From the NCBI RefSeq assembly GCF_988243305.1, contig NZ_OZ547136.1: DNA of 64,000 nt; one strand, 5' to 3'. Both the position numbers and the translations under genes were made by a program. Below, one piece after another: positions 27,791 to 61,881 of this stretch; the stretch's first letter is position 1, and each line of letters starts with the position of its first letter. The notes beneath the pieces were generated by a model. The model was not told the DNA's origin. It ran no database searches and was given only the letters and a program-made list of their open reading frames with translations.

Positions 27791-27938
27791 GAACTTTTTA
27801 AGATTATTGTGGAATGGCGAAATAAGCACCTAACATCAAGCAATAATAATTCAAGGTTAAAATCAATAACTTATTCTTAAGTATTTGACAGCACTGAATG
27901 TCAAAACAAAACCTTCACTCGCAACTAGAATAACTCCC

Positions 27939-28031
27939 GCTATCATCATTAACTTTATTTATTACCGTCATTCATTTCTGAATGTCTGTTTACCCCTATT
28001 TCAACCGGATGCCTCGCATCCGGTTTTTTTT
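27939..28031 (+). ncRNA. micF: MicF antisense small RNA (regulator of ompF), divergent from ompC
   Basis: GCTATCATCATTAACTTTATTTATTACCGTCATTCATTTCTGAATGTCTGTTTACCCC... ending in hairpin CCGGATGCCTCGCATCCGG plus T8; recognised as micF. Putative -10 TAGAAT at 27926-27931. Confidence 0.88.
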
Positions 28032-28342: not shown

Positions 28343-31015
28343 ATGCGTCAGAAAGAGACAACGGCCACGACCCGCTTTTCACTCCTACCGGGGAGCATTA
28401 CCCGCTTCTTTTTACTGTTGATCATTGTGTTACTGGTGACGATGGGGGTAATGGTACAAAGCGCCGTTAACGCCTGGCTGAAAGATAAAAGTTACCAGAT
28501 TGTCGACATTACCCACGCTATCCAAAAGCGCGTCGATACCTGGCGTTACGTGACCTGGCAGATCTACGACAACATTGCCGCGACGACCTCCCCCTCCTCC
28601 GGCGAAGGTTTACAAGAGACGCGCCTGAAACAGGATGTCTACTATCTGGAAAAACCACGCCGCAAAACGGAAGCGTTAATCTTTGGCTCTCACGACAACT
28701 CAACGCTTGAGATGACTCAACGGATGTCCACCTATCTGGACACATTGTGGGGCGCAGAAAATGTACCGTGGTCGATGTATTACCTGAATGGTCAGGATAA
28801 CAGTCTGGTGCTGATCTCAACCCTGCCCCTCAAAGATCTCACCTCCGGATTTAAAGAATCGACCGTCAGCGACATTGTTGATTCACGTCGTGCAGAGATG
28901 TTGCAACAGGCCAACGCCCTCGATGAACGCGAAAGCTTTTCTAACATGCGCCGCCTGGCCTGGCAGAACGGTCATTACTTTACCTTGCGTACCACCTTTA
29001 ACCAGCCGGGACATCTGGCAACGGTTGTGGCTTTTGATCTGCCGATTAATGATTTGATCCCACCGGGTATGCCGCTGGACAGTTTCCGCCTTGAGCCAGA
29101 CGCGACGGCAACGGGAAACAATGATAATGAGAAAGAAGGGACGGATAGCGTCAGTATCCACTTTAACAGTACGAAGATTGAAATCTCCTCGGCACTCAAC
29201 TCTACCGATATGCGCCTGGTCTGGCAGGTTCCTTATGGCACCTTATTGCTGGATACGTTGCAAAACATTCTGCTGCCACTGCTGCTGAATATCGGTTTGC
29301 TGGCGCTGGCGTTATTTGGCTATACCACATTCCGCCATTTCTCCAGCCGCAGTACAGAAAACGTCCCCAGCTCGGCGGTCAATAATGAATTGCGCATTTT
29401 ACGGGCAATCAATGAAGAGATAGTCTCACTGCTGCCGCTTGGCCTGCTGGTTCACGATCAGGAATCGAACCGCACTGTCATAAGTAACAAAATTGCCGAT
29501 CATTTGCTGCCGCATTTGAATCTGCAAAACATCACCACCATGGCGGAACAGCATCAGGGGATTATTCAGGCGACGATCAATAACGAGCTGTATGAGATCC
29601 GCATGTTCCGCAGCCAGGTCGCGCCGCGCACACAAATTTTCATTATTCGCGATCAGGATCGCGAAGTGCTGGTAAACAAGAAACTCAAGCAGGCGCAGCG
29701 TCTGTATGAGAAAAACCAGCAGGGGCGGATGACCTTTATGAAAAACATTGGCGATGCGCTGAAAGAACCTGCACAGTCCCTGGCGGAGAGCGCGGCTAAA
29801 CTCAACGCCCCGGAAAGCAAACAACTGGCGAATCAGGCAGATGTGCTGGTGCGGCTGGTCGATGAAATACAGTTAGCGAACATGCTTGCGGACGATAGCT
29901 GGAAAAGTGAGACGGTGCTGTTCTCTGTGCAGGATTTAATTGATGAAGTTGTGCCTTCAGTGTTGCCTGCCATCAAGCGTAAAGGTCTGCAACTGCTGAT
30001 TAACAATCATCTGAAAGCACACGATATGCGCCGCGGCGATCGCGATGCCTTACGACGTATTTTGCTGCTACTGATGCAATATGCCGTGACCTCAACGCAA
30101 TTGGGAAAAATCACCCTTGAGGTTGATCAGGATGAGTCCTCCGAAGACCGCCTGACGTTCCGCATTCTGGACACCGGAGAAGGCGTAAGCATTCATGAAA
30201 TGGATAATTTGCACTTCCCGTTTATCAACCAGACCCAAAACGATCGCTATGGCAAGGCGGACCCGCTGGCATTCTGGCTGAGCGATCAACTGGCGCGTAA
30301 ACTGGGCGGTCATTTAAACATCAAAACGCGGGATGGGCTTGGTACACGCTACTCTGTGCATATCAAAATGCTCGCAGCTGACCCGGAAGTTGAAGAGGAA
30401 GAAGAGCGTTTACTGGATGATGTCTGCGTAATGGTGGATGTTACTTCGGCAGAAATTCGGAATATTGTCACTCGCCAGTTAGAAAATTGGGGTGCAACCT
30501 GTATCACACCCGATGAAAGATTAATTAGTCAAGATTATGATATCTTTTTAACGGATAATCCGTCTAATCTTACTGCCTCTGGCTTGCTTTTAAGCGATGA
30601 TGAGTCTGGCGTACGGGAAATTGGGCCTGGTCAATTGTGCGTCAACTTCAATATGAGCAACGCTATGCAGGAAGCGGTCTTACAATTAATTGAAGTGCAA
30701 CTGGCGCAGGAAGAGGTGACAGAATCGCCTCTGGGCGGAGATGAAAATGCGCAACTCCATGCCAGCGGCTATTATGCGCTCTTTGTAGACACAGTACCGG
30801 ATGATGTTAAGAGGCTGTATACTGAAGCAGCAACCAGTGACTTTGCTGCGTTAGCCCAAACGGCTCATCGTCTTAAAGGCGTATTTGCCATGCTAAATCT
30901 GGTACCCGGCAAGCAGTTATGTGAAACGCTGGAACATCTGATTCGTGAGAAGGATGTTCCAGGAATAGAAAAATACATCAGCGACATTGACAGTTATGTC
31001 AAGAGCTTGCTGTAG
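28343..31015 (+). CDS. rcsD: Phosphotransfer intermediate protein RcsD (YojN) of the Rcs phosphorelay
   Basis: 890-aa ORF with N-terminal membrane/periplasmic domain, degenerate kinase-like domain and C-terminal HPt domain; followed by rcsB. Confidence 0.92.
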   Translation: MRQKETTATTRFSLLPGSITRFFLLLIIVLLVTMGVMVQSAVNAWLKDKSYQIVDITHAIQKRVDTWRYVTWQIYDNIAATTSPSSGEGLQETRLKQDVYYLEKPRRKTEALIFGSHDNSTLEMTQRMSTYLDTLWGAENVPWSMYYLNGQDNSLVLISTLPLKDLTSGFKESTVSDIVDSRRAEMLQQANALDERESFSNMRRLAWQNGHYFTLRTTFNQPGHLATVVAFDLPINDLIPPGMPLDSFRLEPDATATGNNDNEKEGTDSVSIHFNSTKIEISSALNSTDMRLVWQVPYGTLLLDTLQNILLPLLLNIGLLALALFGYTTFRHFSSRSTENVPSSAVNNELRILRAINEEIVSLLPLGLLVHDQESNRTVISNKIADHLLPHLNLQNITTMAEQHQGIIQATINNELYEIRMFRSQVAPRTQIFIIRDQDREVLVNKKLKQAQRLYEKNQQGRMTFMKNIGDALKEPAQSLAESAAKLNAPESKQLANQADVLVRLVDEIQLANMLADDSWKSETVLFSVQDLIDEVVPSVLPAIKRKGLQLLINNHLKAHDMRRGDRDALRRILLLLMQYAVTSTQLGKITLEVDQDESSEDRLTFRILDTGEGVSIHEMDNLHFPFINQTQNDRYGKADPLAFWLSDQLARKLGGHLNIKTRDGLGTRYSVHIKMLAADPEVEEEEERLLDDVCVMVDVTSAEIRNIVTRQLENWGATCITPDERLISQDYDIFLTDNPSNLTASGLLLSDDESGVREIGPGQLCVNFNMSNAMQEAVLQLIEVQLAQEEVTESPLGGDENAQLHASGYYALFVDTVPDDVKRLYTEAATSDFAALAQTAHRLKGVFAMLNLVPGKQLCETLEHLIREKDVPGIEKYISDIDSYVKSLL

Positions 31016-31684: not shown

Positions 31685-31848
<164 letters not shown>

Positions 31849-31859
<11 letters not shown>

Positions 31860-34864: not shown

Positions 34865-36691
34865 ATGCATTATATGAAGTGGATTTATCCACGCCGCTTA
34901 CGCAATCAAATGATCCTGATGGCAATCCTGATGGTCATTGTCCCAACGCTTACTATTGGTTATATCGTAGAAACGGAAGGACGTTCAGCAGTCTTATCTG
35001 AAAAAGAGAAAAAACTTTCTGCCGTGGTCAACCTGCTTAATCAGGCACTAGGCGATCGCTATGATCTCTACATCGACTTACCACGTGAGGAGCGTATCCG
35101 CGCATTAAATGCAGAACTTGCCCCCATTACCGAAAATATCACTCACGCCTTCCCTGGCATCGGCGCTGGTTATTACAACAAAACGCTGGATGCGATAATC
35201 ACCTACGCGCCTTCAGCGCTATATCAGAATAATGTCGGCGTTACCATTGCCGCAGATCACCCTGGTCGCGAAGTCATGCGTACAAATACCCCTTTGGTTT
35301 ATTCAGGCAGGCAAGTGCGCGGCGATATTTTGAATTCAATGATCCCCATTGAGCGTAATGGTGAAATCCTCGGCTATATCTGGGCCAATGAATTAACCGA
35401 AGATATTCGCCGCCAGGCCTGGAAAATGGATGTGAGGATTATCATTGTGCTCACCGCCGGTTTGCTGATAAGCCTGCTGTTGATTGTCCTTTTCTCCCGT
35501 CGCCTGAGCGCCAATATTGATATCATCACCGATGGCCTCTCGACTCTGGCGCAAAATATTCCCACTCGATTACCACAATTGCCCGGTGAAATGGGGCAAA
35601 TCAGTCAGAGTGTTAACAACCTCGCCCAGGCACTGCGTGAAACGCGGACACTTAACGATCTGATTATTGAAAACGCTGCCGATGGCGTCATTGCCATTGA
35701 CCGCCAGGGTGATGTAACCACCATGAACCCGGCAGCAGAAGTCATCACTGGCTATCAACGTCATGAACTGGTAGGGCAGCCTTACTCCATGTTGTTCGAC
35801 CATACTCAGTTCTACAGTCCAGTACTGGATACGCTGGAACATGGCACCGAACATGTGGCGCTGGAGATCAGTTTTCCAGGCCGTGACCGCACCATTGAAC
35901 TCAGTGTCACTACCAGTCGTATTCATAACACGCATGGTGAAATGATAGGTGCTTTGGTGATTTTCTCTGATCTAACTGCCCGCAAAGAAACCCAGCGCCG
36001 CATGGCGCAAGCAGAACGCCTCGCCACACTGGGTGAGCTGATGGCTGGCGTCGCGCATGAAGTACGTAATCCGCTAACGGCTATTCGTGGTTATGTACAG
36101 ATCTTGCGCCAACAAACCGGTGACCCAATACATCAGGAATATCTGTCCGTAGTACTCAAAGAAATCGATTCAATTAACAAAGTTATTCAGCAATTGCTCG
36201 AATTTTCACGTCCACGCCACAGTCAATGGCAACAAGTCAGTCTCAATGCATTGGTTGAAGAAACTCTGGTACTGGTACAAACCGCCGGCGTACAAGCTCG
36301 GGTCGACTTCATAAGCGAACTGGATAATGAATTAAACCCGATTAACGCCGATCGTGAACTGCTCAAACAGGTACTACTGAATATCCTGATCAATGCCGTC
36401 CAGGCTATCAGCGCACGAGGGAAAATTCGCATTCAAACCTGGCAATACAGCGACTCACAACAGGCCATTTCGATAGAGGACAACGGCTGTGGCATTGATC
36501 TCTCGCTGCAAAAAAAGATCTTCGATCCCTTTTTCACCACCAAAGCCTCAGGAACCGGGCTTGGTCTGGCGTTAAGTCAACGCATCATTAATGCCCATCA
36601 GGGTGATATTCGCGTCGCCAGTTTGCCGGGCTACGGCGCAACCTTCACGCTTATTTTACCGATCAACCCGCAGGGAAATCAGACTGTATGA
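34865..36691 (+). CDS. atoS: Sensor histidine kinase AtoS
   Basis: 608-aa product MHYMKWIYPRRLRNQMILMAI with PAS domain, H-box (AHEVRNPLTAIRG) and ATPase domain; 4-nt overlap with atoC. Confidence 0.92.
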   Translation: MHYMKWIYPRRLRNQMILMAILMVIVPTLTIGYIVETEGRSAVLSEKEKKLSAVVNLLNQALGDRYDLYIDLPREERIRALNAELAPITENITHAFPGIGAGYYNKTLDAIITYAPSALYQNNVGVTIAADHPGREVMRTNTPLVYSGRQVRGDILNSMIPIERNGEILGYIWANELTEDIRRQAWKMDVRIIIVLTAGLLISLLLIVLFSRRLSANIDIITDGLSTLAQNIPTRLPQLPGEMGQISQSVNNLAQALRETRTLNDLIIENAADGVIAIDRQGDVTTMNPAAEVITGYQRHELVGQPYSMLFDHTQFYSPVLDTLEHGTEHVALEISFPGRDRTIELSVTTSRIHNTHGEMIGALVIFSDLTARKETQRRMAQAERLATLGELMAGVAHEVRNPLTAIRGYVQILRQQTGDPIHQEYLSVVLKEIDSINKVIQQLLEFSRPRHSQWQQVSLNALVEETLVLVQTAGVQARVDFISELDNELNPINADRELLKQVLLNILINAVQAISARGKIRIQTWQYSDSQQAISIEDNGCGIDLSLQKKIFDPFFTTKASGTGLGLALSQRIINAHQGDIRVASLPGYGATFTLILPINPQGNQTV

Positions 36692-38073
36692 CTGCTATTA
36701 ATCGCATCCTTATTGTGGATGATGAAGATAATGTTCGCCGTATGCTGAGCACCGCTTTTGCACTACAAGGATTCGAAACACATTGTGCGAACAACGGACG
36801 CACAGCATTACACCTGTTTGTCGATATTCACCCTGACGTGGTGTTGATGGATATCCGCATGCCAGAGATGGACGGCATCAAGGCACTCAAGGAGATGCGC
36901 AGCCATGAGACACGGACCCCCGTTATTCTGATGACGGCCTATGCTGAAGTGGAAACCGCCGTCGAAGCGCTACGCTGCGGGGCCTTCGACTATGTTATTA
37001 AACCGTTTGATCTCGATGAGTTGAATTTAATCGTTCAGCGCGCTTTACAACTCCAGTCAATGAAAAAAGAGATCCGTCATCTGCACCAGGCACTGAGCAC
37101 CAGCTGGCAATGGGGGCACATTCTCACCAACAGCCCGGCGATGATGGATATCTGCAAAAACACCGCCAAAATTGCCCTTTCTCAGGCCAGCGTCTTGATT
37201 AGCGGTGAAAGCGGCACCGGGAAAGAGTTGATTGCCAGAGCGATTCACTACAATTCGCGGCGGGCAAAGGGGCCGTTCATTAAAGTCAACTGCGCGGCGC
37301 TGCCGGAATCGTTGCTCGAAAGTGAACTGTTTGGTCATGAAAAAGGTGCATTTACTGGTGCACAAACCTTGCGTCAGGGATTATTTGAACGTGCCAACGA
37401 AGGTACTCTTCTCCTCGACGAAATTGGCGAAATGCCGCTCGTACTGCAAGCCAAATTACTACGCATTCTGCAGGAACGGGAATTTGAACGGATTGGCGGC
37501 CATCAGACCATAAAAGTTGATATCCGCATCATTGCTGCCACCAACCGTGACTTGCAGGCAATGGTAAAAGAAGGCACCTTCCGTGAAGATCTCTTTTATC
37601 GCCTTAACGTTATTCATTTAATACTGCCGCCTCTGCGCGATCGCCGGGAAGATATTTCCCTGTTAGCTAATCACTTTTTGCAAAAATTCAGTAGTGAGAA
37701 TCAGCGCGATATTATCGACATCGATCCGATGGCAATGTCACTGCTTACCGCCTGGTCATGGCCGGGAAATATTCGAGAGCTTTCCAACGTTATTGAACGC
37801 GCCGTCGTGATGAACTCAGGCCCGATCATTTTTTCTGAGGATCTTCCGCCGCAGATTCGTCAGCCAGTCTGTAATGCTGGCGAGGTAAAAACAGCCCCTG
37901 TCGGAGAGCGTAATTTAAAAGAGGAAATTAAACGCGTCGAAAAACGCATCATTATGGAAGTGCTGGAACAACAAGAAGGAAACCGAACCCGCACTGCTTT
38001 AATGCTGGGCATCAGTCGCCGTGCATTGATGTATAAACTCCAGGAATACGGTATCGATCCGGCGGATGTATAA
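36688..38073 (+). CDS. atoC: Sigma-54-dependent response regulator AtoC (NtrC family)
   Basis: 461-aa ORF with receiver domain, AAA+ sigma-54 activation domain (GESGTGKE, GAFTGA) and C-terminal HTH. Confidence 0.93.
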   Translation: MTAINRILIVDDEDNVRRMLSTAFALQGFETHCANNGRTALHLFVDIHPDVVLMDIRMPEMDGIKALKEMRSHETRTPVILMTAYAEVETAVEALRCGAFDYVIKPFDLDELNLIVQRALQLQSMKKEIRHLHQALSTSWQWGHILTNSPAMMDICKNTAKIALSQASVLISGESGTGKELIARAIHYNSRRAKGPFIKVNCAALPESLLESELFGHEKGAFTGAQTLRQGLFERANEGTLLLDEIGEMPLVLQAKLLRILQEREFERIGGHQTIKVDIRIIAATNRDLQAMVKEGTFREDLFYRLNVIHLILPPLRDRREDISLLANHFLQKFSSENQRDIIDIDPMAMSLLTAWSWPGNIRELSNVIERAVVMNSGPIIFSEDLPPQIRQPVCNAGEVKTAPVGERNLKEEIKRVEKRIIMEVLEQQEGNRTRTALMLGISRRALMYKLQEYGIDPADV

Positions 38074-38084
38074 CGCCAAAACTT

Positions 38085-38125
38085 GCTATGCAGAAATTTG
38101 CACAGTGCGCAATTTTCTGCATAGC
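38085..38125 (+). promoter_or_regulatory. AtoC-binding inverted repeat upstream of atoDAEB
   Basis: GCTATGCAGAAATTTGCACAGTGCGCAATTTTCTGCATAGC: 12-bp perfect arms (GCTATGCAGAAA/TTTCTGCATAGC) within a 41-bp palindromic element about 85 bp upstream of the sigma-54 promoter. Confidence 0.8.
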
Positions 38126-38207
38126 CGCTCATTCTCCTTATAAATCCCCATCCAATTTATCCCTTCATATTCAATTAGTTAAATAACAAAATCCAATAAT
38201 CTCATTC

Positions 38208-38223
38208 TGGCACTCCCCTTGCT
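38208..38223 (+). promoter_or_regulatory. Sigma-54 (-24/-12) promoter of atoDAEB
   Basis: TGGCAC-N5-TTGCT matches the RpoN consensus TGGCAC-N5-TTGCW; about 45 bp upstream of the atoD ATG. Confidence 0.8.
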
Positions 38224-38268
38224 ATTCCCTGACTGTACCCACAACGGTGTATGCAAGAGGGATAAAAA

Positions 38269-38931
38269 ATGAAAACAAAATTGATGACATTACAAGATGC
38301 CACCGGCTTCTTTCGTGACGGCATGACCATCATGGTGGGCGGATTTATGGGGATTGGCACTCCATCCCGCCTGGTTGAAGCATTACTGGAATCTGGTGTT
38401 CGCGACCTGACATTGATAGCCAATGATACCGCGTTTGTTGATACTGGCATCGGTCCGCTCATCGTCAATGGTCGAGTCCGCAAAGTGATTGCTTCACATA
38501 TCGGCACCAACCCGGAAACAGGTCGGCGCATGATATCTGGTGAGATGGACGTCGTTCTGGTGCCGCAAGGTACGCTAATCGAGCAAATTCGCTGTGGTGG
38601 AGCTGGACTTGGTGGTTTTCTCACCCCAACGGGTGTCGGCACCGTCGTAGAGGAAGGCAAACAGACACTGACACTCGACGGTAAAATCTGGCTGCTCGAA
38701 CGCCCACTGCGCGCCGACCTGGCGCTAATTCGCGCTCATCGTTGCGACACACTTGGCAACCTGACCTATCAACTTAGCGCCCGCAACTTTAACCCCCTGA
38801 TAGCCCTTGCGGCTGATATCACGCTGGTAGAGCCAGATGAACTGGTCGAAACCGGCGAGCTGCAACCTGACCATATTGTCACCCCTGGTGCCGTTATCGA
38901 CCACATCATCGTTTCACAGGAGAGCAAATAA
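38269..38931 (+). CDS. atoD: Acetate CoA-transferase alpha subunit AtoD
   Basis: 220-aa ORF, first gene of atoDAEB; 1-nt overlap with atoA. Confidence 0.93.
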
Positions 38932-39581
38932 TGGATGCGAAACAACGTATTGCGCGCCGTGTGGCGCAAGAGCTTCGTGATGGTGACATCGTTAACTTAG
39001 GGATCGGTTTACCCACAATGGTCGCCAATTATTTACCGGAGGGTATTCATATCACTCTGCAATCGGAAAACGGCTTCCTCGGTTTAGGCCCGGTCACGAC
39101 AGCGCATCCAGATCTGGTGAACGCTGGCGGACAACCGTGCGGTGTTTTACCCGGTGCGGCCATGTTTGATAGCGCCATGTCATTTGCGCTAATCCGCGGC
39201 GGTCATATTGATGCCTGCGTGCTCGGCGGTTTGCAAGTAGACGAAGAAGCAAACCTCGCGAACTGGGTAGTGCCTGGGAAAATGGTGCCCGGTATGGGTG
39301 GCGCGATGGATCTGGTGACCGGGTCGCGCAAAGTGATCATCGCCATGGAACATTGTGCCAAAGATGGTTCAGCAAAAATTTTGCGCCGCTGCACCATGCC
39401 ACTCACTGCGCAACATGCGGTGCATATGCTGGTTACTGAACTGGCTGTCTTTCGTTTTATTGACGGCAAAATGTGGCTCACCGAAATTGCCGACGGGTGT
39501 GATTTAGCCACCGTGTGTGCCAAAACAGAAGCTCGGTTTGAAGTTGCCGCCGATCTGAATACGCAACGGGGTGATTTATGA
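38931..39581 (+). CDS. atoA: Acetate CoA-transferase beta subunit AtoA
   Basis: 216-aa ORF following atoD. Confidence 0.93.
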   Translation: MDAKQRIARRVAQELRDGDIVNLGIGLPTMVANYLPEGIHITLQSENGFLGLGPVTTAHPDLVNAGGQPCGVLPGAAMFDSAMSFALIRGGHIDACVLGGLQVDEEANLANWVVPGKMVPGMGGAMDLVTGSRKVIIAMEHCAKDGSAKILRRCTMPLTAQHAVHMLVTELAVFRFIDGKMWLTEIADGCDLATVCAKTEARFEVAADLNTQRGDL

Positions 39582-40900
39582 TTGGTCGCATATCGCGTTT
39601 TATGACGCGTTTTGTCAGCCGGTGGCTTCCCGATCCACTGATCTTTGCCATGTTGCTGACATTGCTAACTTTCGTGATCGCGCTTTGGTTAACACCACAA
39701 ACGCCGATCAGCATGGTGAAAATGTGGGGTGACGGTTTCTGGAACTTGCTGGCGTTTGGTATGCAGATGGCGCTTATCATCGTTACCGGTCATGCCCTTG
39801 CCAGCTCTGCTCCGGTAAAAAGTTTGCTGCGTACTGCCGCCTCCGCCGCAAAGACGCCCGTACAGGGCGTCATGCTGGTTACTTTCTTCGGTTCAGTCGC
39901 TTGTGTCATCAACTGGGGATTTGGTTTGGTTGTCGGCGCAATGTTTGCCCGTGAAGTCGCACGCCGAGTTCCCGGTTCTGATTATCCGTTGCTCATTGCC
40001 TGCGCCTACATTGGTTTTCTCACCTGGGGTGGCGGTTTCTCTGGCTCAATGCCTCTGTTGGCTGCAACACCGGGCAACCCGGTTGAGCATATCGCCGGGC
40101 TGATCCCGGTGGGCGATACTCTGTTCAGTGGTTTTAACATTTTCATCACTGTGGCGTTGATTGTGGTGATGCCATTTATCACCCGCATGATGATGCCAAA
40201 ACCGTCTGACGTGGTGAGTATCGATCCGAAACTACTCATGGAAGAGGCTGATTTCCAAAAGCAGCTACCGAAAGATGCCCCACCATCCGAGCGACTGGAA
40301 GAAAGCCGCATTCTGACGTTGATCATCGGCGCACTCGGTATCGCTTACCTTGCGATGTACTTCAGCGAACATGGCTTCAACATCACCATCAATACCGTCA
40401 ACCTGATGTTTATGATTGCGGGTCTGCTGCTACATAAAACGCCAATGGCTTATATGCGTGCTATCAGCGCGGCAGCACGCAGTACTGCCGGTATTCTGGT
40501 GCAATTCCCCTTCTACGCTGGGATCCAACTGATGATGGAGCATTCCGGTCTGGGCGGACTCATTACCGAATTCTTCATCAATGTTGCGAACAAAGACACC
40601 TTCCCGGTAATGACCTTTTTTAGTTCTGCACTGATTAACTTCGCCGTTCCGTCTGGCGGCGGTCACTGGGTTATTCAGGGACCTTTCGTGATACCCGCAG
40701 CCCAGGCGCTGGGCGCTGATCTCGGTAAATCGGTAATGGCGATCGCCTACGGCGAGCAATGGATGAACATGGCACAACCATTCTGGGCGCTGCCAGCACT
40801 GGCAATCGCCGGACTCGGTGTCCGCGACATCATGGGCTATTGCATCACTGCCCTGCTCTTCTCCGGCGTCATTTTCGTCATTGGTTTAACGCTGTTCTGA
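39578..40900 (+). CDS. atoE: Short-chain fatty acid transporter AtoE
   Basis: 440-aa polytopic membrane ORF; 4-nt overlap with atoA. Confidence 0.92.
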   Translation: MIGRISRFMTRFVSRWLPDPLIFAMLLTLLTFVIALWLTPQTPISMVKMWGDGFWNLLAFGMQMALIIVTGHALASSAPVKSLLRTAASAAKTPVQGVMLVTFFGSVACVINWGFGLVVGAMFAREVARRVPGSDYPLLIACAYIGFLTWGGGFSGSMPLLAATPGNPVEHIAGLIPVGDTLFSGFNIFITVALIVVMPFITRMMMPKPSDVVSIDPKLLMEEADFQKQLPKDAPPSERLEESRILTLIIGALGIAYLAMYFSEHGFNITINTVNLMFMIAGLLLHKTPMAYMRAISAAARSTAGILVQFPFYAGIQLMMEHSGLGGLITEFFINVANKDTFPVMTFFSSALINFAVPSGGGHWVIQGPFVIPAAQALGADLGKSVMAIAYGEQWMNMAQPFWALPALAIAGLGVRDIMGYCITALLFSGVIFVIGLTLF

Positions 40901-40930: not shown

Positions 40931-42115
40931 ATGAAAAATTGTGTCATCGTCAGTGCGGTACGTACTGCTATCGGTAGTTTTAACGGTTCACTCGCTTCCA
41001 CCAGCGCCATCGACCTGGGGGCGACAGTAATTAAAGCCGCCATTGAACGTGCAAAAATCGATTCACTACACATTGATGAAGTGATTATGGGTAACGTGTT
41101 GCAAGCCGGGTTGGGGCAAAATCCGGCACGTCAGGCACTGTTAAAAAGCGGGCTGGCAGAAACGGTGTGCGGATTCACGGTCAATAAAGTGTGTGGTTCG
41201 GGTCTTAAAAGTGTGGCGCTTGCCGCCCAGGCAATTCAGGCAGGTCAGGCGCAAAGCATTGTGGCGGGGGGTATGGAAAATATGAGTTTAGCGCCCTACT
41301 TACTCGATGCAAAAGCACGCTCTGGTTATCGTCTTGGAGACGGACTGGTTTATGACGTAATCCTGCGCGATGGTCTGATGTGCGCCACCCATGGTTATCA
41401 TATGGGGATTACCGCCGAGAACGTGGCCAAAGAGTACGGAATTACCCGAGAAATGCAGGATGAACTGGCGCTACATTCACAGCGTAAAGCGGCAGCCGCA
41501 ATTGAGTCCGGTGCTTTTACAGCCGAAATCGTCCCGGTAAATGTTGTCACTCGGAAGAAAACCTTCGTCTTCAGTCAAGACGAATTCCCGAAAGCGGATT
41601 CTACGACTGAAGCGTTAGGCGCATTGCGCCCGGCCTTCGATAAAGCAGGAACAGTCACCGCCGGGAACGCGTCTGGTATTAACGACGGTGCTGCCGCTCT
41701 GGTGATTATGGAAGAATCTGCGGCGCTGGCAGCAGGCCTTACCCCCCTGGCTCGCATTAAAAGTTATGCCAGCGGTGGCGTGCCCCCCGCATTGATGGGT
41801 ATGGGGCCAGTACCTGCCACGCAAAAAGCGTTACAACTGGCGGGGCTGCAACTGGCGGATATTGATCTCATTGAGGCTAATGAAGCATTTGCCGCGCAGT
41901 TCCTTGCCGTTGGGAAAACCCTGGGCTTTGATTCTGAGAAAGTGAATGTCAACGGCGGGGCCATCGCGCTCGGGCATCCTATCGGTGCCAGTGGTGCTCG
42001 TATTCTGGTCACACTATTACATGCCATGCAGGCACGCGATAAAACGCTGGGGCTGGCAACACTGTGCATTGGTGGCGGCCAGGGAATTGCGATGGTGATT
42101 GAACGGTTGAATTAA
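40931..42115 (+). CDS. atoB: Acetyl-CoA acetyltransferase (thiolase II) AtoB
   Basis: 394-aa thiolase ORF with characteristic active-site cysteine regions (NKVCGSG ... [14 protein letters not shown]). Confidence 0.94.
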
Positions 42116-51614: not shown

Positions 51615-54242
51615 TTATTCTTCTTCTGGCTCGTCGTCAACGTCCACTTCCGGAGCGATTTCATCGTCCCCTTCCGCGGCACTGCCGTCGATGGTATCCA
51701 GATCTTCCTCGTCAACCGGTTCAGCAACACGTTGCAGACCCACTACGTTTTCATCTTCCGCAGTACGGATGAGGATCACGCCCTGGGTGTTACGGCCCAC
51801 GATGCTGATTTCCGAAACGCGAGTACGTACCAGCGTACCGGCATCGGTGATCATCATGATCTGGTCGCAGTCATCTACCTGCACCGCGCCAACCACTAAA
51901 CCGTTACGTTCGGTAACCTTGATGGAGATAACCCCTTTCGTCGCACGCGACTTAGTCGGGTATTCCGCCACTGCGGTACGTTTACCATAACCGTTCTGCG
52001 TTGCGGTGAGGATTGCGCCATCGCCACGAGGCACGATCAGAGAGACGACTTTATCGCCTTCGCCTAAACGAATACCGCGAACACCGGTGGTGTTGCAGCC
52101 CATCGCACGGACAGAAGACTCTTTAAAGCGCACCACTTTACCTTCGGCGGAGAACAGCATTACTTCGTCTTCGCCGCTGGTCAGGTCAACGCCGATCAGC
52201 TCATCGCCTTCAACAAGTTTGATCGCCACTTTACCGGCGGTACGCAGACGGTTGAACTCGGTGAGGACAGTTTTCTTCACGGTACCGTTAGCGGTCGCCA
52301 TGAAGACTTTCACGCCCTCTTCAAACTCGGTCACCGGCAGGATGGCAGTGATTCGTTCGTCCTGCTCCAGCGGCAGCAGGTTGACGATCGGACGACCGCG
52401 CGCGCCACGAGTGGCTTCCGGCAACTGATAGACTTTCATCGAATAGACGCGACCACGGCTGGAGAAGCACAGAATATGGTCGTGGGTGTTCGCCACCAGC
52501 AGTCGGTCGATAAAGTCTTCTTCTTTAATACGTGCGGCAGATTTACCTTTCCCGCCACGACGCTGCGCTTCGTATTCAGAAAGCGGCTGATACTTCACGT
52601 AGCCCTGGTGAGAGAGCGTCACGACCACATCTTCCTGAGTGATCAGATCTTCCAGGTTGATGTCGGCGCTGTTGGCGGTGATTTCAGTGCGACGTTTGTC
52701 ACCGAACTGTTCACGAACCAGTTCCAGCTCTTCGCGGATCACTTCCATCAGACGATCGGCACTGCCAAGAATACGCAGCAGTTCTGCGATCTGATCCAGC
52801 AGCTCTTTGTATTCGTCGAGCAGTTTTTCATGCTCAAGGCCGGTCAGTTTCTGCAAACGCAGATCCAGAATCGCCTGAGCTTGCTGTTCGGTCAGGTAGT
52901 ACAGACCATCACGCACACCGAACTCTGGCTCCAGCCATTCCGGACGCGCAGCATCGTCGCCCGCACGTTCCAGCATGGCGGCAACGTTGCCCAGCTGCCA
53001 CGGATTAGCAACCAGCGCAGTTTTCGCTTCTGCAGGCGTCGGCGCATGACGGATCAGTTCGATGATCGGGTCGATGTTCGCCAGCGCCACGGCTAATGCT
53101 TCAAGGATATGAGCACGATCGCGAGCTTTACGCAGTTCGAAAATAGTACGACGGGTCACCACTTCACGGCGGTGACGAACAAACGCCGCGATGATGTCTT
53201 TCAGGTTCATGATCTTCGGCTGACCATGGTGCAATGCCACCATGTTGATACCGAAAGAAACCTGCAACTGGGTCTGGGAGTAGAGGTTGTTAAGCACAAC
53301 TTCACCGACCGCGTCGCGTTTCACTTCAATCACGATGCGCATACCGTCTTTGTCAGACTCGTCACGCAGCGCGCTGATGCCTTCCACGCGTTTTTCTTTT
53401 ACCAGTTCCGCAATCTTCTCGATCAGGCGCGCTTTGTTTACCTGATACGGAATTTCGTGGACGATAATGGTTTCACGTCCGGTTTTTGCGTCAACTTCCA
53501 CTTCGGCACGGGCGCGGATATATACCTTGCCACGACCGGTACGGTAAGCTTCTTCAATACCGCGACGACCGTTAATGATTGCCGCCGTCGGGAAGTCCGG
53601 CCCCGGGATGTGTTCCATCAGCCCTTCAATGCTGATGTCTTCATCATCGATATACGCCAGACAACCGTTGATGACTTCCGTCAGGTTGTGCGGCGGGATG
53701 TTGGTTGCCATACCTACGGCGATACCGGAAGAACCGTTCACCAGCAGGTTAGGAATTTTGGTTGGCATGACGTCGGGAATTTTTTCCGTGCCGTCATAGT
53801 TATCAACGAAATCGACCGTCTCTTTTTCGAGATCGGCCATCAGTTCATGGGCAATTTTCGCCAGACGGATTTCCGTATAACGCATTGCCGCCGCAGAGTC
53901 GCCGTCGATGGAACCGAAGTTACCCTGACCGTCTACCAGCATGTAACGCAGCGAGAATGGCTGCGCCATACGGACGATCGTGTCATAAACCGCCAAGTCA
54001 CCATGGGGATGGTATTTACCGATTACGTCACCAACGACACGGGCAGATTTTTTATAGGCTTTGTTCCAGTCATTGCCTAGTACGTTCATGGCGTAAAGTA
54101 CGCGACGGTGTACCGGCTTCAGGCCATCTCGGACATCCGGCAGCGCACGGCCAACAATGACCGACATCGCATAATCCAGATAGGAGCTCTTCAGCTCTTC
54201 CTCAATGTTGACCGGTGTAATTTCTCTCGCAAGGTCGCTCAT
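51615..54242 (-). CDS. gyrA: DNA gyrase subunit A, carrying S83L in the quinolone resistance-determining region
   Basis: 875-aa [55 protein letters not shown]; QRDR reads [13 protein letters not shown] (codon 83 = TTG). Confidence 0.97.
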
Positions 54243-59595: not shown

Positions 59596-61881
59596 ATGAA
59601 TCAGAATCTGCTGGTGACAAAGCGCGACGGTAGCACAGAGCGCATCAATCTCGACAAAATCCATCGCGTTCTGGATTGGGCGGCAGAAGGACTGCATAAC
59701 GTTTCGATTTCCCAGGTCGAACTGCGCTCCCACATTCAGTTTTATGACGGTATCAAGACCTCTGACATCCACGAAACCATTATCAAGGCTGCCGCAGACC
59801 TGATCTCCCGTGATGCGCCGGATTATCAGTATCTCGCCGCGCGCCTGGCAATCTTCCACCTGCGTAAAAAAGCCTACGGCCAGTTTGAGCCGCCTGCGCT
59901 GTACGACCACGTGGTGAAAATGGTCGAGATGGGCAAATACGATAATCATCTGCTGGAAGACTACACGGAAGAAGAGTTCAAGCAGATGGACACGTTTATC
60001 GATCACGACCGTGATATGACCTTCTCTTATGCTGCCGTTAAGCAGCTGGAAGGCAAATATCTGGTACAGAACCGCGTGACCGGCGAAATCTACGAAAGCG
60101 CCCAGTTCCTTTATATTCTGGTTGCCGCGTGCCTGTTCTCGAACTACCCGCGTGAAACGCGCCTGCAATACGTGAAGCGTTTTTACGACGCGGTTTCCAC
60201 ATTTAAAATTTCGCTGCCGACGCCAATCATGTCCGGCGTGCGTACCCCGACTCGTCAGTTCAGCTCCTGCGTACTGATCGAGTGCGGTGACAGCCTGGAT
60301 TCCATTAACGCCACCTCCAGCGCGATTGTTAAATACGTTTCCCAGCGTGCCGGGATCGGCATCAATGCCGGGCGTATTCGTGCGCTGGGTAGCCCGATTC
60401 GCGGTGGCGAAGCGTTCCATACCGGTTGTATTCCGTTCTATAAGCATTTCCAGACAGCGGTGAAATCCTGCTCTCAGGGCGGTGTGCGTGGCGGTGCGGC
60501 TACGCTGTTCTACCCGATGTGGCATCTGGAAGTGGAAAGCCTGCTGGTGTTGAAAAACAACCGTGGGGTGGAAGGCAACCGCGTGCGTCACATGGACTAC
60601 GGGGTACAAATCAACAAACTGATGTATACCCGTCTGCTGAAAGGTGAAGATATCACTCTGTTCAGCCCGTCCGACGTACCGGGGTTGTACGACGCGTTCT
60701 TCGCCGATCAGGAAGAGTTTGAACGCCTGTACACCAAATATGAGAAAGACGACAGCATCCGCAAGCAGCGTGTGAAAGCCGTTGAGCTGTTCTCGCTGAT
60801 GATGCAGGAACGTGCGTCTACCGGTCGTATCTATATTCAGAACGTTGACCACTGCAATACCCATAGCCCGTTTGATCCGGCCATCGCGCCAGTGCGCCAG
60901 TCTAACCTGTGCCTGGAAATCGCCCTGCCGACCAAACCGCTGAATGATGTCAACGACGAGAACGGTGAAATCGCGCTGTGTACGCTGTCTGCTTTCAACC
61001 TGGGCGCAATTAATAGCCTGGATGAACTGGAAGAGCTGGCGATTCTGGCGGTACGCGCACTCGACGCGCTGCTGGACTATCAGGATTACCCGATCCCGGC
61101 CGCCAAACGTGGAGCGATGGGTCGTCGTACGCTGGGTATTGGTGTGATCAACTTCGCTTACTACCTGGCGAAGCACGGTAAACGCTACTCCGACGGCAGC
61201 GCCAACAACCTGACGCATAAAACCTTCGAAGCCATTCAGTATTACCTGCTGAAAGCCTCTAATGAGCTGGCGAAAGAGCAAGGCGCGTGCCCGTGGTTTA
61301 ACGAAACCACTTACGCGAAAGGGATCCTGCCGATCGATACCTATAAGAAAGATCTGGATGCCATCGCTAATGAGCCGCTGCATTACGACTGGGAAGCACT
61401 GCGTGAGTCAATCAAAACGCACGGCCTGCGTAACTCCACGCTTTCTGCCCTGATGCCGTCCGAGACCTCTTCGCAGATCTCTAACGCCACTAACGGTATT
61501 GAACCGCCGCGCGGTTACGTCAGCATCAAAGCGTCGAAAGACGGTATTCTCCGCCAGGTGGTGCCTGACTACGAGCATCTGCACGACGCCTATGAGCTGC
61601 TGTGGGAAATGCCGGGTAACGATGGCTACCTGCAACTGGTGGGTATCATGCAGAAATTTATCGATCAGTCGATCTCTGCTAACACCAACTACGATCCGTC
61701 ACGCTTCCCGTCAGGAAAAGTGCCGATGCAGCAACTGCTGAAAGACCTGCTCACCGCCTACAAATTCGGGGTCAAAACGCTGTATTATCAGAACACCCGT
61801 GACGGTGCTGAAGACGCACAAGACGATCTGGTGCCGTCAATCCAGGACGATGGCTGCGAAAGCGGCGCATGCAAGATCTGA
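59596..61881 (+). CDS. nrdA: Class Ia ribonucleoside-diphosphate reductase alpha subunit NrdA
   Basis: 761-aa ORF MNQNLLVTKRDGSTERINLDKIHRVLDWAAEGL with ATP-cone and catalytic cysteines. Confidence 0.97.
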   Translation: MNQNLLVTKRDGSTERINLDKIHRVLDWAAEGLHNVSISQVELRSHIQFYDGIKTSDIHETIIKAAADLISRDAPDYQYLAARLAIFHLRKKAYGQFEPPALYDHVVKMVEMGKYDNHLLEDYTEEEFKQMDTFIDHDRDMTFSYAAVKQLEGKYLVQNRVTGEIYESAQFLYILVAACLFSNYPRETRLQYVKRFYDAVSTFKISLPTPIMSGVRTPTRQFSSCVLIECGDSLDSINATSSAIVKYVSQRAGIGINAGRIRALGSPIRGGEAFHTGCIPFYKHFQTAVKSCSQGGVRGGAATLFYPMWHLEVESLLVLKNNRGVEGNRVRHMDYGVQINKLMYTRLLKGEDITLFSPSDVPGLYDAFFADQEEFERLYTKYEKDDSIRKQRVKAVELFSLMMQERASTGRIYIQNVDHCNTHSPFDPAIAPVRQSNLCLEIALPTKPLNDVNDENGEIALCTLSAFNLGAINSLDELEELAILAVRALDALLDYQDYPIPAAKRGAMGRRTLGIGVINFAYYLAKHGKRYSDGSANNLTHKTFEAIQYYLLKASNELAKEQGACPWFNETTYAKGILPIDTYKKDLDAIANEPLHYDWEALRESIKTHGLRNSTLSALMPSETSSQISNATNGIEPPRGYVSIKASKDGILRQVVPDYEHLHDAYELLWEMPGNDGYLQLVGIMQKFIDQSISANTNYDPSRFPSGKVPMQQLLKDLLTAYKFGVKTLYYQNTRDGAEDAQDDLVPSIQDDGCESGACKI

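Follow-up and report, generated by a model that had tools for sequence, protein, structure and literature searches.

Systems close to the one described here include NtrC-glnAp2, NorR-norV, ZraR-zraP and PspF-pspA, which share with the atoDAEB operon of Escherichia coli a dyad-symmetric UAS lying ~100 bp from a GG-N10-GC promoter. Activators of the NtrC-glnAp2 type likewise comprise a receiver, an AAA+ domain with its GAFTGA loop and a Fis-type HTH, and the intervening DNA in those systems is also A/T-rich and IHF-like. The ato system differs in having a single 41-bp composite palindrome where the others have two or three separate dimer sites, in a half-site consensus specific to AtoC orthologs (GCTATGCAGAA(A/T)TTTGC(A/G)CA, taken over the 18 half-sites aligned below), and in its signal, which is acetoacetate received via AtoS.

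For the K-12 sequence, AtoC binds two half-sites, at -184 to -165 (plus strand) and -163 to -144 (minus strand) from the atoD start, both of them ChIP-positive targets (PMC3118216 Table 5). The half-sites are needed for acetoacetate induction, and the palindrome has been termed a high-affinity, gel-shift-verified site controlling acetoacetate inducibility (PMC3118216). The K-12 promoter is occupied by sigma-54: ChIP-seq peak OS21 upstream of atoD, with the 17-mer CTGGCACTCCCCTTGCT as its motif, has a FAT of 5 and is marked in EcoCyc as a promoter confirmed by experiment (PMC4591121). In vitro, a gSELEX peak for reconstituted RpoN holoenzyme falls in the atoC-atoD spacer (PMC8743547).

The window, by which we mean the whole 64-kb stretch of DNA analysed, carries the same locus as K-12, with the same gene order, 41-bp palindrome, IHF-like site and -24/-12 17-mer, and with equal distances to the atoD ATG (palindrome at -184 to -144, predicted transcription start 35 nt upstream). 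Alignment of a 231-nt region to K-12 MG1655 gave only three differences, at 38075 (G in the window, A in K-12), 38188 (A, T) and 38227 (C, G), and all three fall outside the palindrome, the -24/-12 element and the IHF-like site. The region is almost certainly the control region of atoSC-atoDAEB in E. coli, consisting of an NtrC-type enhancer and a sigma-54 promoter. The element is already known and well studied, and with its working parts unchanged base for base from K-12 it is an ordinary example. As for the three spacer SNPs, position 38227 lies 4 nt after the -12 element and is C in six of eight other genera and A in the other two; the window thus has the cross-genus consensus base, and the K-12 G appears derived.

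The genes are also collinear with K-12, in the order atoS-atoC-atoD-atoA-atoE-atoB between rcsC and yfaP, all on the plus strand. atoS, for the sensor histidine kinase (34865–36691), encodes 608 aa counted from the K-12 ATG, the mechanical ORF beginning earlier at GTG 34853, and matched the NCBIfam equivalog NF008468 at 994 bits (cut-off 646). atoC (36688–38073), for the 461-aa sigma-54-dependent response regulator, matched NF008469 at 1000.7 bits (cut-off 714). Next come atoD and atoA, for the acetate CoA-transferase alpha subunit (38269–38931; NCBIfam NF007394, 442.6 bits, cut-off 315) and beta subunit (38931–39581; TIGR02428, 304.6 bits), then atoE for the short-chain fatty acid transporter (39578–40900; TIGR00366, 749 bits) and atoB for acetyl-CoA acetyltransferase (40931–42115; TIGR01930, 491.6 bits, cut-off 240.55). 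All six have exactly their K-12 lengths and no internal stops; the products differ from K-12 at five residues in AtoS, two in AtoC, one each in AtoD and AtoA, none in AtoE and six in AtoB. The AtoC translation keeps VLMDIRM with D55, the Walker A motif GESGTGKE, the GAFTGA loop and a C-terminal HTH, and AtoC orthologs are annotated with Pfam Response_reg, Sigma54_activat and HTH_8. By BLAST, strain Z1323HEC0462 is 98.4–99.7% identical to the window outside the ato region, with indels upstream of the locus.

A first-pass annotation of the window, made from its letters, had judged the module to look functional and had named disrupting mutations in atoS or atoC as what would speak against this. 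Both genes are full length and stop-free, with the five and two residue changes given above, and with six genes and the control sites intact the judgement holds at the level of sequence integrity. Its author could not see that one of the two AtoC changes from K-12, A45V and D158N, is rare. Codon 158 lies at window position 37159, and D158 was invariant in the nine AtoC orthologs sampled (K-12 and eight other genera, down to 65% identity). Among complete E. coli genomes, a 31-mer at this codon was found in the A form (N158) in 8 and in the G form (D158) in 3,904. A 31-mer also covering a nearby synonymous site matched exactly in only one genome, against the eight with N158, so N158 occurs on at least two haplotypes.

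The control region could therefore be intact and the module nonetheless functionally altered, if D158N brought a loss of AtoC activity or partial constitutivity. The invariance of the residue in the orthologs sampled and the 8-to-3,904 count favour this reading, as do the absence of the 99.9%-identical ST2747 genomes from the eight N158 matches and the location of residue 158, at the start of the AAA+ domain and 15 residues before Walker A. Against it, the exchange of D for N is isosteric and conservative; the aligned position is variable across the wider bEBP family, being K in Aquifex NtrC4; the allele turns up in several natural isolates that are unrelated to one another, food and clinical strains among them; and the downstream ato genes show no decay. 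D158N is probably tolerated, judging from these comparisons, and we regard a functionally altered module as unlikely. We give the same low odds to a change in activator behaviour as such, for example toward a partly signal-independent AtoC. If true, this would be a naturally occurring variant in how short-chain fatty acid catabolism is regulated. D158N is the sole strain-specific point here worth a bench test.

The enhancer and promoter lie in the 195-nt spacer between atoC and atoD (38074–38268). The palindrome GCTATGCAGAAATTTGCACAGTGCGCAATTTTCTGCATAGC occupies 38085–38125, starting 11 nt 3' of the atoC stop codon, which is exactly where a 41-bp palindrome with perfect 12-bp arms had been described by the first reading. 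It is a near-palindrome of the form 20+1+20, in which the outer 12-nt arms are perfectly complementary and 18 of the 20 positions of the full arms are symmetric (90% complementary). No other inverted repeat with 20-nt arms and at least 18 of 20 matches was present in the 64-kb window, and none of 200 dinucleotide-preserving shuffles yielded a comparable one.

We converted the published AtoC offsets to window coordinates, which gave 38085–38104 and 38106–38125. The plus-strand half-site GCTATGCAGAAATTTGCACA at 38085–38104 is the published ChIP-positive site and is the same in K-12; the second, GCTATGCAGAAAATTGCGCA as read on the minus strand, at 38106–38125, is likewise the published one. Both 20-mers are letter-identical to the AtoC sites of PMC3118216 and lie at equal distances from the atoD ATG, so the comparison with the published binding site that had been proposed for this region came out in its favour. 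Other sequences in the window that resemble a half-site, among them one at 30662 with a single mismatch, occur at chance frequency.

Within the species, a 61-bp query containing the palindrome matched all 3,923 ato-positive E. coli genomes, with identity over the aligned part of at least 99% in 3,504 of them and 95–99% in 419. Matta et al., in 2007, are said to have placed the palindrome at -146 to -107 from a mapped start and to have found IHF involved. E. coli E69 (L029 4485–4525) has the right half-site GCTATGCAGAAATTTGCGCA, which makes its palindrome symmetric at 19 of 20 positions instead of 18.

The promoter core TGGCACTCCCCTTGCT, at 38208–38223 on the plus strand, matches TGGCAC-N5-TTGCT without mismatch and is oriented toward atoD. 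It lies 82 nt 3' of the palindrome, in agreement with the ~80 bp given previously, and 61 nt 5' of the atoD ATG (38269); it ends together with the -12 element at 38223, the position at which the first-pass annotation had also ended the region. With the preceding C it forms the sigma-54 promoter CTGGCAC-N5-TTGCT, CTGGCACTCCCCTTGCT, at 38207–38223, in which the GG (38209–38210) and GC (38221–38222) doublets are exactly 10 nt apart; the GG is 104 bp from the palindrome centre, within the ~80–150 bp looked for in an NtrC-type enhancer. This is the only exact TGGCAC-N5-TTGCW in the window, where 0.13 were expected. Of the 3,923 ato-positive E. coli genomes, 3,841 (98%) carry the 31-mer surrounding it in essentially invariant form.

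A promoter scan of 37950–38350 found no sigma-70-like promoters, with 0.8 expected. The sigma-54 pattern with one mismatch is at chance frequency in the window (2 found, 3.7 expected); one such match, of chance-level stringency, is GGGCACGCGCCTTGCT at 61277–61292 on the minus strand. The published rule sets the predicted start 19 nt past the centre of the motif, which is 35 nt upstream of the gene (PMC4591121 Table 1), and the transcription start is accordingly predicted at 38234 on the plus strand. A ribosome-binding site, GAGGGA, is read in the sequence at 38257–38262 on the plus strand, and its AGGGA is kept across genera.

Between enhancer and promoter, at 38169–38181 on the plus strand, the spacer holds an IHF-like site, ATTCAATTAGTTA, with one mismatch to the consensus WATCAANNNNTTR. 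Taken alone this match is not above chance, as the window contains 58 such one-mismatch sites against 49 expected. The site is a conserved island in eight other genera, however, with an identity of 0.78 against 0.45–0.49 for the flanking spacer, and we infer that IHF may act here. The description of a complete control region stands as to its elements and was missing this conserved site. A literature search for a link between IHF and atoDAEB returned nothing usable.

Other candidates in the spacer were rejected. The inverted repeat TTTATCCCT/AGGGATAAA (38156–38164 and 38258–38266) was taken as a chance match, because its first arm is upstream of the transcription start and in non-conserved spacer. 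A structured RNA within the 5' UTR was dismissed at z = +0.87, and no Rfam family was found in the atoC-atoD spacer. Within the 5' UTR, the block GTACCCACAACGGTGTAT (38235–38252) has a cross-genus identity of ~0.75, above that of spacer DNA, and is without a significant fold.

To look for the enhancer in other species, we searched 100,044 species representatives with its core, ATGCAGAAA-N17-TTTCTGCAT. Only the E. coli representative matched with an AtoC palindrome, so orthologous loci were instead gathered through AtoC homologs. These came from Escherichia sp. (88% identity), Klebsiella (85%), Citrobacter freundii (83%), Enterobacter (82%), Edwardsiella (82%), Atlantibacter (71%), Pragia (67%) and Morganella (65%). 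The order atoC-atoD-atoA-atoE is kept in all eight loci and rcsC-atoS lies upstream in most; no atoS gene was called at the Morganella locus.

The other 78 loci found by the core scan were set aside as unrelated hairpins, many of them copies of one multi-copy Lachnospiraceae palindromic element. That element has the form ATGCAGAAAGCCTGCC-NNN-GGCAGGCTTTCTGCAT, in many cases with ATACCATCGT / ACGATGGTAT on its flanks; it was found on eight contigs of one MAG and in three copies in Schaedlerella arabinosiphila (L004, L005, L013, L014, L028, L039–L046, L079–L081 and others). It is unrelated to AtoC and came up through shared outer 9-mers.

Nine spacers were aligned, and identity to the window was taken over the seven closest sequences. 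The three palindrome segments stood out at 0.89, 0.92 and 0.80 and the -24/-12 block at 0.89, with the IHF-like site at the 0.78 given above; the two intervening spacer stretches were at 0.45 and 0.49. In every genus examined the palindrome lies directly behind atoC, and in every species aligned TGGCAY-N5-TTGCW lies 56–64 nt before the ATG. Besides the atoC-atoD arrangement and this promoter, the other Enterobacterales ato loci share the inner core TTGCACA-N-TGYGCAA; their outer arms diverge with distance, and the Morganella palindrome is symmetric at only 10 of 20 positions.

The distance from palindrome centre to GG was 104–107 bp in the six sequences where the core was located, the window included (E. 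coli, Escherichia sp., Klebsiella, Citrobacter, Edwardsiella and Atlantibacter). In Pragia and Morganella it was 137–139.5 bp, the enhancer lying ~32 bp further upstream than in E. coli. A shift of ~32 bp is about three helical turns and would fit looping that depends on the face of the helix. The palindrome contains four TGCR submotifs spaced ~10 bp apart, an arrangement that would put a pair of AtoC dimers on the same face of the helix. What these comparisons add to the known system is a modest refinement: the half-site consensus, the conserved IHF-like island and the spacing change of about three helical turns.

The palindrome might also, or instead, act as RNA, forming a hairpin at the 3' end of the atoSC transcript. 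Such a hairpin could end transcription or shield the mRNA, and could insulate atoDAEB from read-through. As RNA it folds at -23.3 kcal/mol (z = -5.55), and none of 200 shuffles was as stable; its position, 11 nt past the stop codon of atoC and directly behind that gene in all genera examined, is one in which such a hairpin would be placed. The half-sites moreover co-vary, with GAAATTT/GAAAATT in E. coli and GAATTTT in both Klebsiella arms, but symmetric co-variation is equally expected for the site of a dimeric DNA-binding protein. An inner-stem A.C mismatch (CACA against CGCA) is kept in all six spacers sampled from Escherichia, Klebsiella, Citrobacter, Enterobacter and Edwardsiella, and in E. 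coli E69; such a conserved mismatch is more readily explained by protein recognition than by selection on a stem. There is no U-tract after the hairpin, and the terminator scan made no call; an intrinsic terminator at this site was therefore rejected, the hairpin being stable but lacking a T-run. AtoC binding and the need for it in induction are, in addition, documented by experiment (PMC3118216). We consider an RNA role improbable, and a palindrome doubling as an mRNA 3' hairpin of atoSC a smaller possibility than an altered D158N activator.

A reading in which both the palindrome and the -24/-12 match arose by chance and regulate nothing could appeal to the chance frequency of one-mismatch sigma-54 and IHF patterns in the window, but has practically no chance of being correct and is excluded by the uniqueness of both the exact sigma-54 match and the palindrome (0.13 expected and 0 of 200 shuffles), by the conservation of both elements across genera where the flanking spacer is not conserved, and by their experimental verification in K-12.

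The reading that we prefer is therefore that of the atoSC-atoDAEB control region, and the enhancer/promoter architecture expected of an NtrC-type activator, as the first-pass annotation had put it, is here made up of verified AtoC half-sites and a sigma-54 site bound in vivo and in vitro. By this reading, AtoS would sense acetoacetate and phosphorylate AtoC on D55, and phospho-AtoC would bind the 20+1+20 palindrome at 38085–38125 and oligomerise into its active AAA+ form. DNA bending at the IHF-like site (38169–38181) would bring AtoC to an RNA polymerase-sigma-54 closed complex waiting on CTGGCAC-N5-TTGCT at 38207–38223. ATP hydrolysis by AtoC would then open the promoter, and transcription of atoDAEB would start near 38234. 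Activity of the module also requires rpoN and, by this reading, ihfAB, both of which are outside the window. The value of the finding is that of annotation: all that acetoacetate-inducible short-chain fatty acid catabolism needs in cis appears, as far as sequence can tell, to be present, which sets this strain apart from E. coli genomes without the locus and from lineages with a split atoC. Such catabolism bears on gut colonisation and on metabolic engineering.

Presence of the locus is not universal in E. coli. Of 5,426 complete genomes, 3,923 contain the spacer and 3,898 contain 80% or more of the 7.5-kb ato locus. About 28% (~1,500) of complete genomes are missing the locus, with only ~75 nt beside rcsC left there; HUSEC2011 (O104:H4; L003 3999–4274), for example, has rcsC followed directly by yfaP. 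Degenerate forms were also found. In a common lineage atoC is split into a receiver ORF of 165 or 135 aa and a 310-aa AAA+/HTH ORF (P0083), the latter found on 295 contigs (examples are L091 2565–3933 and L092 2549–3933), and atoS and atoDAEB look intact. Strain N3 (L002 22872–26803) keeps ato with a frameshifted atoB and is missing yfaP-yfaA, so that atoB adjoins gyrA. Some other genomes have IS insertions or IS-associated deletions in ato. An earlier statement that the locus is absent or degenerate in some lineages is borne out by these losses, split genes, frameshifts and IS events.

Elsewhere in the window, gyrA (51615–54242, minus strand) encodes S83L, a classic quinolone-resistance substitution, with D87 unchanged. 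Matches at the Rfam gathering level were obtained for the MicF sRNA upstream of ompC (27938–28031, plus strand), for naRNA4 (CssrE) just downstream of rcsC (31773–31849, minus strand) and for a tRNA (2983–3056, plus strand) that is annotated as tRNA-Pro in the closest genome.
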